From UHGV virus genome UHGV-2031204: a DNA stretch of 64,000 nt; one strand, 5' to 3'. The position numbers and the translations under genes are program-made. Below the pieces are notes generated by a model that was given only the letters and a program-made list of their open reading frames with translations, had not been told where the DNA came from and did no database searches. Positions 3,241 through 14,974 of this stretch are shown in pieces. Each line of letters opens with the position of its first letter. The stretch's first letter is position 1. This stretch comes from a virus.

Positions 3241-3283
3241 TTACCCTACTCCCGAAGGAGTAGGGTAACGTTTATTTTTTTAC
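3241..3283. terminator. bidirectional intrinsic terminator between convergent genes
   Basis: Stem-loop ttaccctactcccgaaggagtagggtaa with a T-run on the + side; lies between the + gene ending 3235 and the - gene ending 3280. Near-identical copy at 8599-8626. Confidence 0.7.
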
Positions 3284-5061
3284 CGTGCAGCTTTGATGTA
3301 TTCAAAAGGATCGGTAATCGTTTCTCCTTGTCTACGTAGAAAAGCTTCTAAGACGACATTTTTATCGGGCAATAGGAAGAAATCTGTCGCGATTTCCATT
3401 GCATTGACGCGCCCCGCAGTAAGGTTAATACCGACACGACGCCGTACCTCTTCAGGAACACCGTGAATGCTCAGTAGCTCGATTAACGTTGTTTCACGAG
3501 ACTGGTTCATCATGTTCGTTGCAGATGGGTATGCCTGGGTTAAGTCAGCATCCGCAGTTTGCCCACGGAAAGCCGTGTAGAAATCATCAACTTCTTTGAT
3601 GATGTTTCGTAGCCCATTCTCTGCGTTCATACACGCAGTCAATGTAACAATCCAACCATCCGTCCCAATGACTTCATTGTCGAAATCGTTACGCATCGCG
3701 CTACCCACACAACCGATAACCAGGCCCTGTTCATAGAGGTAATACGTGTATGCAATACAGATTCGCTTCGGCAGAGAAGGGAAAATATCATACATCGAAT
3801 AACCCGCCAAAACTGAAATAGCAGAAGACAGATCGTTCGTCTTTTTATCGAGCAGAACAATCATCAAGTTATCGAAGATGTTATAAACGCAGTATTCTAA
3901 CGGGAAATCTTTCTGCGCCTTTAAGTGCCATTCCAACTTCTCCTCGTAGGGCAGTTCCGGTAAGTCCAACTTGTTTAAACCCAACTCGGTTTCCAGTATC
4001 GCGTTAAGTTTGTAAGAGGGGCGTTGTCCCTCGTGTACACGCAATGAACGGAATAGACACATTGCATCTACACAGTAGAATGACGCCGTACAATAAAGAA
4101 TGTGCCACTGTTGCGAAGGCGCTTTTGTTAATGACTTTGATTCCGTTTTCTTCGATGCTTCGTCTTTCTTAAAGTAGACACGACGGTACTGTTTTGGCAC
4201 GTCAGGATGACAGAAGACGTCTTCCGGTGGAATCCCCGCAGCTTCTAAAGCTTCCAACATACGTGAAATATCGAACTCGTGGTTCCATGCGACGAGTAAG
4301 TCAGGAAGCCGAGGATGGATTTCCTCAAACATCCGTTGAATGCAACAACCTGAATTGAGGCATTCGTAAACGAAGATTTTGTAACCATCGATAACGTTTT
4401 TGTATTTAACGATAGGATTGTCGTTCTCGTCTTTTCCACGAAAAGCGATTTTAGAAAGCAATTCCTGAGCACGTTTGACGAGTCGCGCTTCAAAGTTTTC
4501 ACGCCCACAACGGGTGACGTAGTCTTTCGTAGCAAAGAAATGAATTTCGTCGTCTAAAACAAAACTCATAATCCAGGGGTCTCGAGACTTGTCTTCTTCT
4601 CGAGTTTCCACGTCGTATACACAGATGCGGTTAGGTGAAACAGCATTAGGCCATTTACGTATGTACTTTTCTTTAATCCAGCTAGTAATGGGCAAATCAG
4701 CCCAGTAAACATACGGTGAAGTACAAACCTGACGGAGTGGTTTCTTTTTATCGGGAAAACGAATCCCCAGACCCATCTGTATGGTTGAGGACATCATTAC
4801 GTCCGTTGTTAAATATTCCTGGCACTTACTACGTTCTTCGTATTCTTTCTTTTCCTTGTGATTACGATGTTGTGGTAAAGTAATGTAGATGGGCCGTTTC
4901 AGATTTTCACGCATGACAATTCGTGGGATATATCTGCCATCTTTAGTATGGACGACCTCCTTTATGAGCACGAAGTCGTTTTCTTTCTGCTGATCGGTTG
5001 CGTAAGAAACAAACTTGCACTCCTTGGCAATAACGTCTTCCGGTGCGTAATAGTTATTCAT
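3280..5061 (-). CDS. DEDD-type 3'-5' exonuclease domain protein (possible proofreading or split-polymerase subunit)
   Basis: Translation contains VYDVETREED (Exo I-like D-x-E), WNHEFDISRM (Exo II-like N-x-x-FD) and YCVDAMCL / YNIFDNL (Exo III-like Y-x3-D). No polymerase palm motifs (DxxSLYPS, YGDTDS) seen. Start set at the internal ATG (MNNYYAPED) rather than the track start at 5175. Confidence 0.5.
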   Translation of the reverse strand: MNNYYAPEDVIAKECKFVSYATDQQKENDFVLIKEVVHTKDGRYIPRIVMRENLKRPIYITLPQHRNHKEKKEYEERSKCQEYLTTDVMMSSTIQMGLGIRFPDKKKPLRQVCTSPYVYWADLPITSWIKEKYIRKWPNAVSPNRICVYDVETREEDKSRDPWIMSFVLDDEIHFFATKDYVTRCGRENFEARLVKRAQELLSKIAFRGKDENDNPIVKYKNVIDGYKIFVYECLNSGCCIQRMFEEIHPRLPDLLVAWNHEFDISRMLEALEAAGIPPEDVFCHPDVPKQYRRVYFKKDEASKKTESKSLTKAPSQQWHILYCTASFYCVDAMCLFRSLRVHEGQRPSYKLNAILETELGLNKLDLPELPYEEKLEWHLKAQKDFPLEYCVYNIFDNLMIVLLDKKTNDLSSAISVLAGYSMYDIFPSLPKRICIAYTYYLYEQGLVIGCVGSAMRNDFDNEVIGTDGWIVTLTACMNAENGLRNIIKEVDDFYTAFRGQTADADLTQAYPSATNMMNQSRETTLIELLSIHGVPEEVRRRVGINLTAGRVNAMEIATDFFLLPDKNVVLEAFLRRQGETITDPFEYIKAAR

Positions 5062-5132
5062 GATTTCACTCTCAAATCTAGCGGCTGCTATACTGATTTG
5101 TGGGTAATGTAATTTCTCAAAAGGAAACACAA

Positions 5133-6467
5133 ATGGGATATTGGCAAAATCACATTGCATCAGTTGCGGATGCAAAGGTTGTAGCCGCAGAATCGATTAA
5201 ATTCCAAGACAAAAAGAAGCTGGCAGAATTGGCTGATATTATTGCTAAGTTTCGTGGAGCAGGCGATTTCAGTCCTGCTGGCTACGAAAGTGCCGGGGTT
5301 TCGGATTGGGTATTTAAGAATATCGGCATTACGATTCACTTTAAGAACGGTGGTGAACTGGGTCTTGCTGACGTTGCTTTTGCAGGTGTGGAACCACCGA
5401 AATTGGATGCAAACAGTCCAATCATCGCATCGATGACTCGTGCGCTGTACGCAGGTAACAAAGACCTGGATATGTACAGTAAGTTCATCAAAGAAAACGA
5501 GCTAAACTCAACAATCGATGACAGCAGTGCAAAAATCAGTGGCGATCTGAGCAAAGTGGGTTCTCCGCTTTATCTTACCCCGGTGCTGTTGGAAAAATTA
5601 AATTTGACCGATCTGGAAATCGCCTCGGTGATTCTTCACGAAGTCGGGCACATCTACTATTATTTCCGCACTCTGATGCGCACTGTGGTGACTGATTTGC
5701 TGGCGGATGCTGCGGCTAACCGCATCATGGAAACGGAAGACCAGAATGTCCGCTTGCGTATCGTTAAAGACGTAGAGAAGATGCTGAACACGAAAGTGAA
5801 TCAGCCAGAAACGATTTGTACTGAGTACAAAAAAGAAAACGTCTACATGCACTTGGTCACACAGCTGTTATTAGATCGTCCGTTTATTAGTGGCAGTCAA
5901 GGCTTTGCTAACAGAACGTGGGAACGTGCTGCGGACGATTTTGCTTCCCGTTTCGGAGGCGCTCCTTATCTGGCTTCCGCACTGTATAAAATGGAAACCA
6001 GTTCGTTCTATTTGCTGCGGAACTCAGCGTATATGAACATGGGTGTCCATTTGACAGTAGAACTTTTCCGCGTGACTGCGCTGATAGTCTCTTCTACGAT
6101 TCCAATCATTCCGGTGATCTCCGTGACGTTCGGAATGATCTTAAATGACCCGGATAACACCATTTACGATCCGCCACAGCAGCGTTTTGAGGCAATGCGA
6201 CGTACACTCGTTGAAGAACTCAATACGATTAAAGACAAAAATACGAAAGCTGCTAACGAGCAACGTAAACGTATTTTAGATGGTATTGCGGTTATCGACA
6301 AGTTATTAGAAACCGTAAAAGATAAAGATAACTTGTACCAGTTTATCTGGAATACTTTAACGCCGAAGGGTCGTCGCTCACGTGCTGCAGTTGATTACCA
6401 GCGCGCGATTGGGAAGTATATGTCGAACGATCTTCGTATTGCTTCAGCCATGTTTAATGTCGAATAA
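5133..6467 (+). CDS. putative M48-like zinc metalloprotease with hydrophobic segment
   Basis: HExxH at ILHEVGHIYY, then downstream ERAADDFASRFGG resembling the M48/HtpX third-ligand E-x-x-A-D motif; probable TM stretch LIVSSTIPIIPVISVTFGMIL. ATG at 5133 preceded by aaaaggaaac. Confidence 0.45.
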   Translation: MGYWQNHIASVADAKVVAAESIKFQDKKKLAELADIIAKFRGAGDFSPAGYESAGVSDWVFKNIGITIHFKNGGELGLADVAFAGVEPPKLDANSPIIASMTRALYAGNKDLDMYSKFIKENELNSTIDDSSAKISGDLSKVGSPLYLTPVLLEKLNLTDLEIASVILHEVGHIYYYFRTLMRTVVTDLLADAAANRIMETEDQNVRLRIVKDVEKMLNTKVNQPETICTEYKKENVYMHLVTQLLLDRPFISGSQGFANRTWERAADDFASRFGGAPYLASALYKMETSSFYLLRNSAYMNMGVHLTVELFRVTALIVSSTIPIIPVISVTFGMILNDPDNTIYDPPQQRFEAMRRTLVEELNTIKDKNTKAANEQRKRILDGIAVIDKLLETVKDKDNLYQFIWNTLTPKGRRSRAAVDYQRAIGKYMSNDLRIASAMFNVE

Positions 6468-6481
6468 GTAAAGGTAAAATC

Positions 6482-6925
6482 ATGACGCATAAAGTTTCTT
6501 TAAATTCCCTGGTTCTGGACTTTAAACGTACGAACGAGGGTAAAGGTGTACAGGCACAACGCGCACTGACTGGCCTGGTCGCATTCGCATTGGCTTATAA
6601 TACCGATATGCCCGATAATGGTCCGTTTGGGTCGAATGAAGTGTCGCAGCTAAAGCTTCGCCCGCTGATGAAAAATGTTGTTTCGGACGTAAACGAGCTT
6701 TATTGTGTCGATCTGGGCAGTATTGAAGATTTGACAGTGGCACTGTTTTGTAACCGCTACGATAGCGCTTGGGGTGGTCGTCGCGCTATTGAAAACTTCT
6801 CTGTCCGTGAGATTTTCAATGAAGCCTTGGGCGACGATGTATGGGATACCGTTAATCTGTGGCTGGAACGTTTCATGGAAACGGTGAAATTCTATATGGA
6901 AGAAACGCGAGGCGAGCTGGTATGA
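6482..6925 (+). CDS. hypothetical protein
   Basis: 147-aa ORF; stop overlaps the next start (ATGA). Confidence 0.75.
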   Translation: MTHKVSLNSLVLDFKRTNEGKGVQAQRALTGLVAFALAYNTDMPDNGPFGSNEVSQLKLRPLMKNVVSDVNELYCVDLGSIEDLTVALFCNRYDSAWGGRRAIENFSVREIFNEALGDDVWDTVNLWLERFMETVKFYMEETRGELV

Positions 6926-8592
6926 GTATGGAGATGACAGCAAACATTGCGCAACCGCAGTGGAAACTCGATGAACTTCCTGCACTGTTAGAACAGCGTA
7001 TGGAAGAACGCATCGATTCTGTTAGCCAACTCAATCTCTACATGCAACGTAATGAAGCAGACCTGATTTACGGTTCTCGCCTTATCGCGCAAATTGAAGC
7101 GATCTTACGGGAAATACGTAATGCAGGGTTGAACCGTGATGTTGCTGTGGCGACTGAATCGTTGCGTCCTGGCACAATCCCGAAGGCGGTACAAAGTGTT
7201 CTGACGTCGAATTATTCCAAAACACACCAGAAAGAAACGGTGGTGGCATTAGAGTCTTACGCTAATTTTGGTAAGATTAGCCTTATCGTGATGGTGATGA
7301 TGGGGATAATGAAAATCCTCAGTTGGATTATCAGCAACGCCGTTCCTTTTGCAGGTGCTGCGAATATTGACGGGAACGACTATCGTGAGAAACTGGAAGA
7401 GAAGTTGGCCGATGTTCCTTTCACAGAGCGCCTGAAAACAACCGTACTGAAAGAAGTTTATCTGGTACTGTCAAAAGGTTTGAAAGACAGCGAGTTAAGC
7501 AACCTGGAGTTATCTCTTTCGCTGGCCGACGACGTTTTCGTGAACATGGAAGCTGAAGAGTTTCTAAATAAACTCGCCGCTGCGTTAGGTAAATCACCGT
7601 TTATCGATACGTTTAAGAACCATCTTAAACGTCGGCAGAATGAGTTGCAGGTTATTCAGGATCTGCTCGATACGCTGCTTCGGACGAATATCGGTTACGG
7701 TGTATTTGACTTCGGGGTTGCTGAGGAAGTCTATAACGGTTTGCCGCCTGATGTGAAACGTGCTGGAGTGAACATTCCGTCAGATATTCAGTTCAACTTA
7801 ATGAGCACGCTTCTTGACAGTTTTGCCGGTGCGCTTCAGGACTTAGACCAGTCGCTGAAAGACATCAAAACGTATTACCTGTCGAATAATCCGAAGGTAG
7901 GCACATCGCAAGAGAACCAAGTCGCCGCTGTGCATCTGGTTCGTGCGTTAGGCGAGATCAATGGCCGAATTGAATATACTGCCACGGAATTTGGACGACA
8001 GAAAGGTAGCCCGGGTCCAATTTTGCGTGTAAAAGACAAGGTTGAGCTTCTCGGCTATACCACACGTGAATTAGACAACGGTTGGATGATTGCGTCGATC
8101 GGTGCTAACTCTTTCTTTGGCTCCACAACAAATCTGGAGATGATGCGCCAGGAGTTGAGCTTAAGTAACGGGGATTACCGTGAGCTGTTGGCATGTCTGA
8201 TTACACTGGCACGTAGTGGTATCTCGGATGGTGTGGCGAACACCGCACTAGACAAGTATAAGGTGTTGGAGAAACGTGTCGATCAGGTTGTAAAAACCTT
8301 GAAAGATATGGCGCGCCAATCACGTTCTGGCGTCGACAGTCAGAAATGGCAGGCGATGGAACAGGCGTTTAAAGACCAGGTGACGCGAGGGGAGAACTTT
8401 AACCTTCATGGTCGTGAGCTGACCACGATGATGGTGTTAAACCCTGACCGTAATGTCTGGGATTCTGTTGCGCACAGTGCAAACATGATTAACATGTGGT
8501 GCAAGGCCGCAGGGTCTATGGCAACGGTGTTGAAGCGTGCCAAGTCCAACCCACTTGTGAAAGGCGGGAAGTTCAATAAATTGATTGATTAA
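6922..8592 (+). CDS. hypothetical membrane-associated protein
   Basis: Long ORF; the in-frame ATG at 6922 overlaps the upstream stop; hydrophobic segment ISLIVMVMMGIMKILSWIISNAVPFAGAA. Confidence 0.75.
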   Translation: MSMEMTANIAQPQWKLDELPALLEQRMEERIDSVSQLNLYMQRNEADLIYGSRLIAQIEAILREIRNAGLNRDVAVATESLRPGTIPKAVQSVLTSNYSKTHQKETVVALESYANFGKISLIVMVMMGIMKILSWIISNAVPFAGAANIDGNDYREKLEEKLADVPFTERLKTTVLKEVYLVLSKGLKDSELSNLELSLSLADDVFVNMEAEEFLNKLAAALGKSPFIDTFKNHLKRRQNELQVIQDLLDTLLRTNIGYGVFDFGVAEEVYNGLPPDVKRAGVNIPSDIQFNLMSTLLDSFAGALQDLDQSLKDIKTYYLSNNPKVGTSQENQVAAVHLVRALGEINGRIEYTATEFGRQKGSPGPILRVKDKVELLGYTTRELDNGWMIASIGANSFFGSTTNLEMMRQELSLSNGDYRELLACLITLARSGISDGVANTALDKYKVLEKRVDQVVKTLKDMARQSRSGVDSQKWQAMEQAFKDQVTRGENFNLHGRELTTMMVLNPDRNVWDSVAHSANMINMWCKAAGSMATVLKRAKSNPLVKGGKFNKLID

Positions 8593-8598
8593 AAAAGA

Positions 8599-8642
8599 TT
8601 ACCCTACTCCCGGAGGAGTAGGGTAACTTTTATTATTTTTTC
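8599..8642. terminator. bidirectional intrinsic terminator (copy of the 3241 hairpin)
   Basis: ttaccctactcccggaggagtagggtaa plus T-run; differs from the 3241 copy by one loop base; sits between convergent genes. Confidence 0.7.
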
Positions 8643-12921: not shown

Positions 12922-14028
12922 ATGTTAGAAAAAACGTTTGAGACAAGCGTTGTCTCTTTCCTCTCCAGACTTCCCATGCTGTTTCGTTCGCGTGCGGAGT
13001 CGATGGAGGAATTTAACTCAGTGCTCTATAACGAGCACATTACCTTAGTCGAACAAAGCCTGCTGGGTTTAGATTACCTTCCGGGAATTCTGGAGAAAAT
13101 CCAAATTTTGCTGGCAGGAAACCAATTAACGGCTATCTCACTGTTAACCGGTGTACCGGATGTTGACATTATCGGTACCCTGGATCAGGTCAGCACACGT
13201 CGTAGTGCGCTTGATAACGCAGTCCGCACCGGTTCCCGCTTAGCAGCGCTTGCAGTCGGCGAATCTGCCCGTTATGGTTTACCATCATACGATAAAATCG
13301 GCATTGCAGTCGGCGAATCTGCCCGACGGGTCGCCCAGGAATCAAAAGGTTCGGTCAGTGGCGGGAAAGGTGATCCGATTAAACAGCTTTTCGATCAAGA
13401 AGGGTTGTCCAACGGGAAAATGTTCTCAGTAACATTCGAACGTGACGGTAATAAAGTCGAACTCCCAATGCGTTTACGTTTGGATGTGAAATCCTTACCG
13501 ACCGAACAAATTGAAACACTGATTGCGTTCAGTGACCAGACGAAAACATTCTGGGAACGTTGGCTGCGTGCACGCGTTGGCGCGTTGAGTTACGTAAAAG
13601 ACATTGCGTTCTGTAACGACCTGGTAGAAGAATATCGTAAGAACCGTTATCGCGATAAGTCCGGTTATTACCGTAAGATGATGGAGAAGAAGAACGGTAA
13701 CTGGTTGTCTGGCCTGCTGTCTTTGGCACCGTCTATCAATAACGCCTCTTCCGTTATGGTGGTTTCTCAAGACACCATTGACGGCTTGACCGCACAACTA
13801 GGTGGTGAATTTGACGATTTCAATATCCGTCAGCGTGTGTTCAAAGACACCTTGACTGTCTACTATGTTGTTGTGGACACCACCTGGAATCGTGTCACTA
13901 TTTATACCCGTGGTCAGAACGGCTCTCAGGAACTCGATAAATCTGACTTTAGTAAATCGAAGTCTGGTAGCGCCGATGTAAATAAAATCATCGAAGCGTA
14001 TCGCTCTGGCGCTCAGCCAGTTCTTTAA
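12922..14028 (+). CDS. hypothetical protein
   Basis: 368-aa ORF with aggaaa RBS; contains an internal direct repeat encoding AVGESAR twice. Confidence 0.8.
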   Translation: MLEKTFETSVVSFLSRLPMLFRSRAESMEEFNSVLYNEHITLVEQSLLGLDYLPGILEKIQILLAGNQLTAISLLTGVPDVDIIGTLDQVSTRRSALDNAVRTGSRLAALAVGESARYGLPSYDKIGIAVGESARRVAQESKGSVSGGKGDPIKQLFDQEGLSNGKMFSVTFERDGNKVELPMRLRLDVKSLPTEQIETLIAFSDQTKTFWERWLRARVGALSYVKDIAFCNDLVEEYRKNRYRDKSGYYRKMMEKKNGNWLSGLLSLAPSINNASSVMVVSQDTIDGLTAQLGGEFDDFNIRQRVFKDTLTVYYVVVDTTWNRVTIYTRGQNGSQELDKSDFSKSKSGSADVNKIIEAYRSGAQPVL

Positions 14029-14038
14029 GGGGTAAGGC

Positions 14039-14974
14039 ATGGCAATCCCGAATATGCTCGCTATGTTGTTGCCGAGCTTTGAAGCAACAAACTTGAAAAA
14101 CCAACTCTCATCAAACTGCGATGCGATTGGTGAACAACTTTTACCGCGTTTCCAGTCTCTGCAAGAGCTGGTAGCGTCGAAAGAAGGCAAGCCGTTTAAA
14201 TCGAAAACGGTGCAGGACATGTCGGATGATTTGGTTAAATACCTGCGGAATTCCGGTCTGGAAGCCAAAGGTCTCCGTAATCCTTCGATGCTGGAATACA
14301 TCGTTGCCTCGATGGAAAACACGCTACAATTGCGTTCTTTCTTAGACCAATGTATTACGCGTGACATTGGTAAAGCGTTAGTCACGTCTTCAATGACGTT
14401 TAATAAATTAACGGTGCTCAGACTGCTTGACCTGATTGACTTCTTTACAGGTTACAGTGCCACCTTACTTAACTACGTAACCGCAGAAGAAATAGCCGCC
14501 GTAGAAGGCTCGAATATTGAAGTAAAAGGCGTCGGTCCGAATGACCTTCAATACCTCAATACTCGTTCTATTTCTTACTGCATTGCTGTCCGTGTGCTGG
14601 CAACGCCGCTGAATAAACTGAAAGCGGATTATGCGGAAATTCCTGAAGCGATCTTTAACGACGAAACTTACGGTGAGTTGGCGCAACAGTTCGGTTCGAG
14701 CTCCGTTGACCCACTGGGAATGAGCAGTGTACCGTTCCCAATCTCACTGATATTGCGCGTACGTTTGAATATCGCTGAACGGCAGATGGATAAGTACGAC
14801 GAGTGTGTAGAAGCGGCGAAAGCGGCGGAACTGCGTATCTTACTTTACAAAAAGCAAGTCGCAGAAGGTAAGGGTGATGCCCACATTGAGAAACTGATTG
14901 AAATCAGTGAAAAGCATCTGATGGAACTCAAGCACAAGCGTGAGCGTCTTGAAAAGAAATACGGTTTAGCGTAA
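14039..14974 (+). CDS. hypothetical protein
   Basis: 311-aa ORF with aagggg RBS; charged helical C-terminal region. Confidence 0.8.
   Translation: MAIPNMLAMLLPSFEATNLKNQLSSNCDAIGEQLLPRFQSLQELVASKEGKPFKSKTVQDMSDDLVKYLRNSGLEAKGLRNPSMLEYIVASMENTLQLRSFLDQCITRDIGKALVTSSMTFNKLTVLRLLDLIDFFTGYSATLLNYVTAEEIAAVEGSNIEVKGVGPNDLQYLNTRSISYCIAVRVLATPLNKLKADYAEIPEAIFNDETYGELAQQFGSSSVDPLGMSSVPFPISLILRVRLNIAERQMDKYDECVEAAKAAELRILLYKKQVAEGKGDAHIEKLIEISEKHLMELKHKRERLEKKYGLA

Follow-up and report, generated by a model that had tools for sequence, protein, structure and literature searches.

What does a protein built like a membrane metallopeptidase do for a phage, and where and when would it act? The question is raised by the gene at positions 5,133 to 6,467 of the 64,000-nucleotide stretch of virus genome UHGV-2031204 analyzed here (the window), for which an earlier reading of the letters alone (the sequence-only reading) had proposed an M48-like HExxH metalloprotease with a membrane segment. 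The explanation that best accounts for the data as a whole, to which we assign a probability of about 0.6, is that the encoded protein (the window protein) is a divergent M48-like protease of phiKZ-like (Chimalliviridae) jumbo phages that is packaged into the phage head and would be ejected from it to act at a membrane. At stake is whether these phages possess an additional protease in the head that serves maturation or an injected protease that works at the host membrane while the early infection vesicle forms; few other virion genes in the core set of nucleus-forming jumbo phages bear a clear enzymatic signature as this family does.

Both the family and its protease signature are already on record, so that the finding is a correct rediscovery and not a new kind of element. 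One protein that clusters with the window protein at 90% bears the name "integral membrane metallopeptidase", the homologue in phage Moabite is annotated as "M48 family lipoprotein protease" and that in another phage record as "beta-barrel assembly-enhancing protease"; a conserved, uncharacterized zincin-like metallopeptidase, which may belong to this family, has also been counted with the proteins that build phiKZ-like virions (PMC7824862). The detail added here concerns the conservation of the motifs, a protease site that coincides with a module boundary and an inserted apolar hairpin.

Family membership and head packaging

The window protein matches PHROG 2767 over its full length (residues 1 to 442; E = 8e-151). 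Phage genomes searched with the gene by megablast gave no match, and its relatives were reached by tblastn, which matched 223 jumbo-phage records with 70-73% identity to Salmonella phage SPN3US, its relatives and Erwinia phages, and ca. 25% identity to Serratia phage Moabite, Ralstonia phage RSL2 and phiKZ-like Pseudomonas phages. An exhaustive HMMER search (E<=1e-3) extended the family to 1431 cluster representatives, of which almost all are 410-450 residues long. The SPN3US orthologue is ACQ60_gp221, a "putative virion structural protein 1" that is 70% identical to the window protein, corresponds to gp45 by the reversed numbering of that record (266-221) and adjoins the polymerase gp44. PHIKZ084, which the phiKZ record calls a "structural head protein", is likewise homologous (BLASTP E = 1e-19, 26% identity) and retains HEIGH and E-Q-L-A-D, and gp084 has been listed as core gene cg22 of Chimalliviridae, the nucleus-forming jumbo phages (PMC10299810 supplement). 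The window protein shares with the SPN3US gp45 / phiKZ gp84 family full-length homology, the same catalytic motifs, the apolar stretch, the A-x-E20 site and the position of its gene, with no differences of substance, and we consider it very probable that it is the orthologue of these proteins and packaged into the head.

Its open reading frame on the plus strand can be begun at GTG 5100 or ATG 5133 and ends at 6467. ATG 5133 is the likely start because a Shine-Dalgarno-like AAGGA precedes it (Table 1), because every close orthologue has MG[YH]W as its N-terminus and because the PHROG 2767 match includes residue 1; GTG 5100 was ruled out by the spacing of AAGGA and by the N-termini of the orthologues.

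With this start, the first 20 residues resemble a propeptide that is removed in the head. Mass spectrometry has found SPN3US gp45 (50.3 kDa) in virions as well as in tailless heads and lacking a 20-residue propeptide, which gp245, the prohead protease, cuts off at ASE-20 (PMC10052503 Table 2). In SPN3US heads, gp245 cleaves after A-x-E with V favored at P4 and S at P1', and the window protein reads AAE-20↓S, i.e., V-A-A-E20↓S-I (the arrow marks the cut), in agreement with this preference. The site is kept across 161 relatives, with E at P1 in 158, S, A or G at P3 in 147, A or S at P1' in 139 and I at P2' in 133 of them, and the propeptides predicted across the family measure 6-21 residues. Rare long proteins of 800-1240 residues, all metagenomic (P0052, P0054, P0125, P0100 and P0131), carry the M48-like module at their C-terminal end, where it starts exactly at GME↓AI, AME↓AI or STE↓SI and the junction always keeps [S/A/G]-x-E↓[A/S/G]-I; the protease site is therefore the boundary of the module. 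Two of these long proteins have an N-terminal piece of phrog_8131, the family of SPN3US gp47 (E = 1.5e-6 and 1e-4), one carries a piece of phrog_18338 ("virion structural protein"), and P0052 and P0125 show a transmembrane (TM)-like stretch on their N-terminal side.

Among the processed proteins of SPN3US, gp45 is the only one with a propeptide as short as the capsid-targeting sequence (CTS) of phage T4, and it has been likened to the T4 CTS proteins, with the mature protein remaining in the head (PMC5694885). These T4 proteins (IPI-III and Alt) are packed into the head and injected, and they likewise bear a short N-terminal peptide of 10-20 residues that ends in Glu and is cut by the prohead protease; unlike gp45 and gp84, they are not metallopeptidases, they have no sequence relationship to them, and injection is established for the T4 proteins only. 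Head packaging together with processing by the prohead protease narrows the place and time at which the window protein could act.

Catalytic motifs and the apolar stretch

The HEVGH claimed by the sequence-only reading is present at residues 169-173 (positions 5637-5651), and the motif that it had placed about 100 residues farther on was located as well: ERAADDFASRFGG begins at E264 (position 5922), 95 residues after H169, within a segment, NRTWERAADDFASRFGG, that begins at residue 260 and of which NRTWERAADD forms residues 260-269. Residues H169, E170, G172, H173, E264 and D268 are conserved in 100% of the 161 relatives, and R351 joins this invariant set (140-161 relatives compared, with a mean identity to the query of ~25%). 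An HExxH motif arisen by chance was ruled out by this invariance. R351 ends a third motif, Y345-D346-x-P348-x-x-R351, which is collinear with the C-terminal HPxxxxR of M48 peptidases and in which Y345 is conserved in 95%, D346 in 98% and R351 in 100% of the relatives.

An M48-like arrangement of zinc ligands, as proposed from the letters, was borne out when the family as a whole was compared. In an hmmsearch of the PDB, the family profile matched human ZMPSTE24 (E = 1.4e-5) in two collinear stretches that cover both ligand helices, so that HExxH aligns with H335-E336-H339 of its HELGH helix and E264 with the Glu of RRFEFQADAFA (family consensus R-s-w-E-q-l-A-D-q-F-A). This Glu we take to be the third zinc ligand, E415, of the published structure, and E264 is predicted to be the third ligand because of this alignment. 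A comparison by hhalign with an alignment of Escherichia coli YcaL, LoiP, BepA and HtpX reached 93.5% probability (E = 2.4e-7) over residues 143-173, those with single E. coli sequences being weaker (78% for HtpX and 30% for BepA). In its greedy mode, hhalign lined up three collinear motifs, namely the strand with LxxxExxAViLHExGH, (S/N)RxxExxAD, and HPxxxxR with Y-D-x-P-x-x-R; the second of these pairs with YcaL SRDKESEADDFS (SRDKESEAD) and the first additionally with HtpX. The Pfam M48 model (PF01435) is matched individually by 33 of 101 family members at E<=0.01 (best E = 3.4e-6), and the Moabite homologue, with 20.4 bits, is over the cut-off; its GenBank note reports an HHpred match of 98% to HtpX (3CQB). 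By contrast with the family-level result, phiKZ gp84 gave no match to Pfam M48, phmmer of the single window protein against the PDB returned noise only, and a comparison with NCBIfam yielded nothing usable.

Comparisons of structure are less telling. AlphaFold2 (AF2) models the window protein with a predicted local distance difference score (pLDDT) of 74.5 and a predicted template modeling score (pTM) of 0.76 as a small sheet followed by a long HExxH helix (residues 160-200) and, later, a Glu helix. Foldseek against the PDB placed ZMPSTE24/Ste24 structures at all top ranks, none of them significant, and its matches in BFVD are jumbo-phage virion proteins that include a "Zincin protease" (Bacillus phage AR9) and a "Peptidase M48 domain-containing protein". 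The sequence-only reading would have been given up had no peptidase family matched and had HExxH varied among orthologues; we instead found an M48 match at the level of the family and an invariant motif. Membership in M56 or WLM/SprT was rejected on the family-model searches: neither M56 nor WLM matched the window protein at E<=1, M56 matched 0 of 101 family members, and SprT-like models matched 2 of 101 weakly (best E = 0.0016).

The M48 peptidases that we compared comprise ZMPSTE24/Ste24 (M48A), HtpX, BepA, YcaL and LoiP (M48B/C) and minigluzincins such as proabylysin. With them, the window protein shares an HExxH helix after a typical strand and an LxxxExxAV(I/L) lead-in, a Glu in an (S/N)RxxExxAD helix, a collinear C-terminal xPxxxxR and, in the model, a small sheet before the active-site helix; with ZMPSTE24 it also shares a hydrophobic segment that separates the Glu helix from the C-terminal motif. 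It differs in that the phage family lies under or at the Pfam cut-off, has Y-D in place of the His of HPxxxxR, and possesses N-terminal (~140 residues) and C-terminal (90 residues) regions of its own, the latter of which found no match outside the phage family and contains E427, a residue conserved in 98% of the relatives. It also lacks a signal peptide, a lipobox, N-terminal TM helices and the seven-helix chamber and, unlike any cellular M48 enzyme known to us, is packaged into a capsid with a propeptide that is cut by a phage serine protease.

From these comparisons we conclude that the window protein is a putative M48-like gluzincin of divergent sequence whose predicted catalytic residues are under strict selection. 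The catalytic set appears complete, with H169 and H173 as predicted zinc ligands, E170 as the predicted general base and E264 as the predicted third ligand, and the protein is quite likely to be an active zinc endopeptidase.

The hydrophobic segment that the sequence-only reading had connected with membrane association lies at residues 303-337, where the Kyte-Doolittle average over 19 residues peaks for the window protein (1.96). Its character is conserved more than its residues: the most hydrophobic 19-residue window falls into this same region in 157 of 161 relatives and reaches at least 1.6 in 96% of them (median 2.15), whereas the frequency of the top residue is only 0.26 there, compared to 0.62-0.64 at the catalytic motifs and 0.39 for the whole protein. 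Half-way along an uncharged run of 22 residues (median), 145 of 161 relatives have Pro or Gly near the center. According to greedy hhalign, the stretch is an insertion between the second and third motifs relative to the periplasmic M48 enzymes of E. coli. Such conserved apolar character would fit a lipid-facing hairpin or a helix of TM length.

Ejection, maturation or assembly

Under the explanation that we favor, the propeptide would be a tag that targets the protein to the prohead like a T4 CTS and possibly also a latency device, and the mostly helical protein would exit the head after DNA ejection along with other ejection proteins. The apolar hairpin would then anchor it at the inner membrane or at the early-infection (EPI) vesicle, and the anchored enzyme would cleave a host protein or a co-ejected phage protein early in infection. 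Ejection is favored because ejection proteins typically carry a TM-like segment, for which a capsid filled with DNA offers no evident use, because the gene lies in one operon with, and in some phages is fused to, a gp47-type TM protein that is an ejection candidate, and because gp245 already accounts for all mapped head cleavages. That the protein is both ejected and acting at a membrane is a tentative component of the explanation, and we hold it at somewhat less than even odds. The injected cargo of phiKZ associates with membrane-derived lipid (bioRxiv 10.1101/2024.03.24.586471), and the virion RNA polymerase of phage N4 has a zincin-type HExxH motif in its C-terminal part and is likewise packed into the capsid, and ejected (PMC13434306); the latter is an unrelated protein from an unrelated phage family and is likened to the window protein by HExxH alone.

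A narrower version, in which the enzyme opens or remodels the inner membrane during the first minutes by cutting proteins of the host inner membrane or co-ejected ones (e.g., the gp47-like TM protein), is improbable as a specific claim; if true, this is how the genome and the virion RNA polymerase would become enclosed in the EPI vesicle, and the protein would be the first enzyme to which this step is ascribed. The targets named by the sequence-only reading, envelope or defense proteins, are speculation.

Transposon sequencing of phiKZ retained 0 insertions in PHIKZ084 after trimming (9 raw sites in 1242 bp) and orf85-86, downstream of orf84, are deletable (PMC12676376), which together suggest that orf84 itself matters for phiKZ.

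Among the rivals, an accessory peptidase for head maturation fares best, yet we consider it unlikely. In this scenario, the protein would be activated inside the prohead by removal of its propeptide and, without ever leaving the head, would degrade scaffold or propeptide fragments that the prohead serine protease has released so that these exit the capsid, or would make extra cleavages. Iyer et al. 2021 (PMC7824862) indeed proposed a maturation role for a "conserved, uncharacterized zincin-like metallopeptidase" that they described in group 1 jumbo phages, but the accession given there, AMR59696.1, could not be tied to the gp45/gp84 family. The protein is present in proheads and heads and itself processed there, SPN3US heads shed long propeptides of 111-254 residues that need breakdown, and the gene is core and probably essential, as head-assembly genes are. 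However, all 14 mapped head cleavages of SPN3US fit the A-x-E specificity of gp245 and leave no orphan cleavage for a second protease (PMC10052503, PMC5694885), and it is not obvious what purpose a conserved apolar stretch of TM length would serve in a capsid filled with DNA.

A membrane-tethered assembly factor, whose hairpin would keep a prohead core or portal complex at the inner membrane as it forms and whose peptidase domain would release the protein itself or a partner, is more doubtful still. The conserved apolar stretch and the incorporation of the protein into proheads would suit this role. It is also in its favor that the cell membrane is where phiKZ-like phages build their capsids, which dock on the phage nucleus later, and that gp20 lets T4 proheads begin on the membrane. 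However, gp45 and gp84 are not known to lie at the membrane during assembly, and the mature head keeps the protein minus its N-terminal 20 residues, so that the hairpin is not cut off but enters the capsid. A catalytically dead structural head protein descended from an M48 peptidase would agree with database names that mostly read "virion structural protein", with unreported activity and with the replaced C-terminal His of M48, but is very improbable given that seven putative active-site residues are invariant at ~25% overall identity, as expected of an enzyme and not of a pseudo-enzyme.

Returning to an ejected, membrane-acting protease, several observations weigh against it. Taken alone, the window protein scores 17.0 bits (E = 0.0054) against PF01435, which is under the gathering score of 20.3, and the His of HPxxxxR is replaced by Tyr-Asp. 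In the window protein the apolar stretch reaches only moderate hydrophobicity and includes two prolines, so that it may be a buried hairpin or one at an oligomer interface. The entry for SPN3US gp45 in Table 2 of PMC10052503 reads "Head, unknown function", and the phiKZ transposon data come without validation by targeted deletion and from a dataset with polar artefacts (PMC12676376). Our literature searches on phiKZ gp84, PHIKZ084 and jumbo-phage M48 proteins retrieved no functional study, with activity, zinc binding and substrate unreported for any member, and gp84 goes unmentioned in the main texts that were searched of the papers on phiKZ injected proteins, the EPI vesicle and virion cryo-electron microscopy; ejection of gp45 or gp84 is not known to have been reported.

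Neighboring genes and occurrence

The features of the gene and of its surroundings are compiled in Table 1.

Table 1. Positions of the metallopeptidase-like gene, its predicted protein features and the adjoining elements in the window.
Feature	Position	Strand	Basis
Coding sequence, 444 residues plus stop; very probable SPN3US gp45 / phiKZ gp84 orthologue (PHROG 2767), predicted divergent M48-like zinc metallopeptidase	5133..6467	+	
Shine-Dalgarno-like AAGGA, 7-8 nucleotides 5' of ATG 5133	5121..5125	+	sequence reading
N-terminal propeptide (residues 1-20) with prohead-protease motif V-A-A-E20↓S21 at positions 5184-5192	5133..5192	+	
M48 motif 1 (residues 143-173), strand-turn and active-site helix, GSPLYLTPVLLEKLNLTDLEIASVILHEVGH	5559..5651	+	
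M48 motif 2 (residues 260-273), NRTWERAADDFASR, with E264 as predicted third zinc ligand	5910..5951	+	
Hydrophobic stretch (residues 303-337), two model helices at 303-320 and 325-337 of moderate confidence	6039..6143	+	Kyte-Doolittle, AF2
C-terminal motif YDPPQQR (residues 345-351), collinear with M48 HPxxxxR	6165..6185	+	greedy hhalign
C-terminal helical region (residues 352-444), specific to the phage family	6186..6464	+	AF2 secondary structure
DNA polymerase gene, SPN3US gp44-like, divergent neighbor	3280..5061	-	phrog_3011 E = 6e-250, SPN3US annotation
SPN3US gp46-like gene, phrog_8529, same operon	6482..6925	+	
SPN3US gp47 orthologue, phrog_8131	6922..8592	+	
Probable bidirectional terminator, G+C-rich hairpin of 12-13 bp, T-runs on both strands	8598..8627	.	

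The divergent placement described by the sequence-only reading holds, but the neighbor that it had called an exonuclease is a DNA polymerase gene and not just an exonuclease. If begun at TTG 5175, the polymerase reading frame would overlap the gp45-like gene; its start is probably ATG 5061, because the phrog_3011 match begins at residue 41 of the longer frame and the length of SPN3US gp44 fits. Between the two divergent genes this leaves 71 bp (5062-5132), in which the promoters of both are to be expected. On the other side, the gp47 orthologue starts at ATG 6922, not at GTG 6859, with a 4-nucleotide overlap with the preceding gene, and contains the protease motifs ATE-79 and ALE-111 directly followed by a TM-like stretch at residues 119-137 (Kyte-Doolittle 2.31). 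Its SPN3US counterpart, gp47, is a head protein that the phage requires; it has a predicted TM helix and is a candidate for ejection (PMC5694885). The hairpin closes both the operon of gp45-, gp46- and gp47-like genes and a convergent virion gene of 984 residues.

The window, SPN3US and Moabite have a common order of polymerase gene (minus strand), the gene under study (plus strand), a 147-residue gene, a large head gene and a convergent gene of ~980 residues. This order matches SPN3US gp44-gp48 and phiKZ gp84-87, with gp83 lying between polymerase gp82 and gp84 in phiKZ. BLASTP found no similarity between the gp46- and gp47-like proteins of the window and phiKZ gp85 and gp86, which are encoded at the same positions (phiKZ 13217-14945), so the deletability of phiKZ orf85-86 is not transferred to the gp46- and gp47-like genes of the window. 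Dispensability of orf85-86 in phiKZ and essentiality of gp47 in SPN3US thus need not conflict.

The window belongs to an SPN3US-related jumbo phage, with the best megablast match among deposited phage records showing ~75% identity over 25-35% of its first 20 kb. In the Salmonella phages SPFM1-SPFM20 (P0029-P0035), the query matched in short pieces only (up to 19 stretches) and one or the other catalytic motif is absent; these fragmented homologues look like frameshift errors in the assemblies and not like real variants. The exact window protein is already public as EBX3776453.1 and DAY66673.1 and is encoded on 77 contigs, the longest of 225.5 kb; its cluster has 384 members. The assemblies in question are of Salmonella (Chester, Enteritidis, Braenderup and Newport), E. 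coli and Shigella isolates, and such recurrence of the exact gp45-like protein across enterobacterial assemblies suggests a widespread phage of ~225 kb that travels with, or contaminates, enterobacterial cultures.

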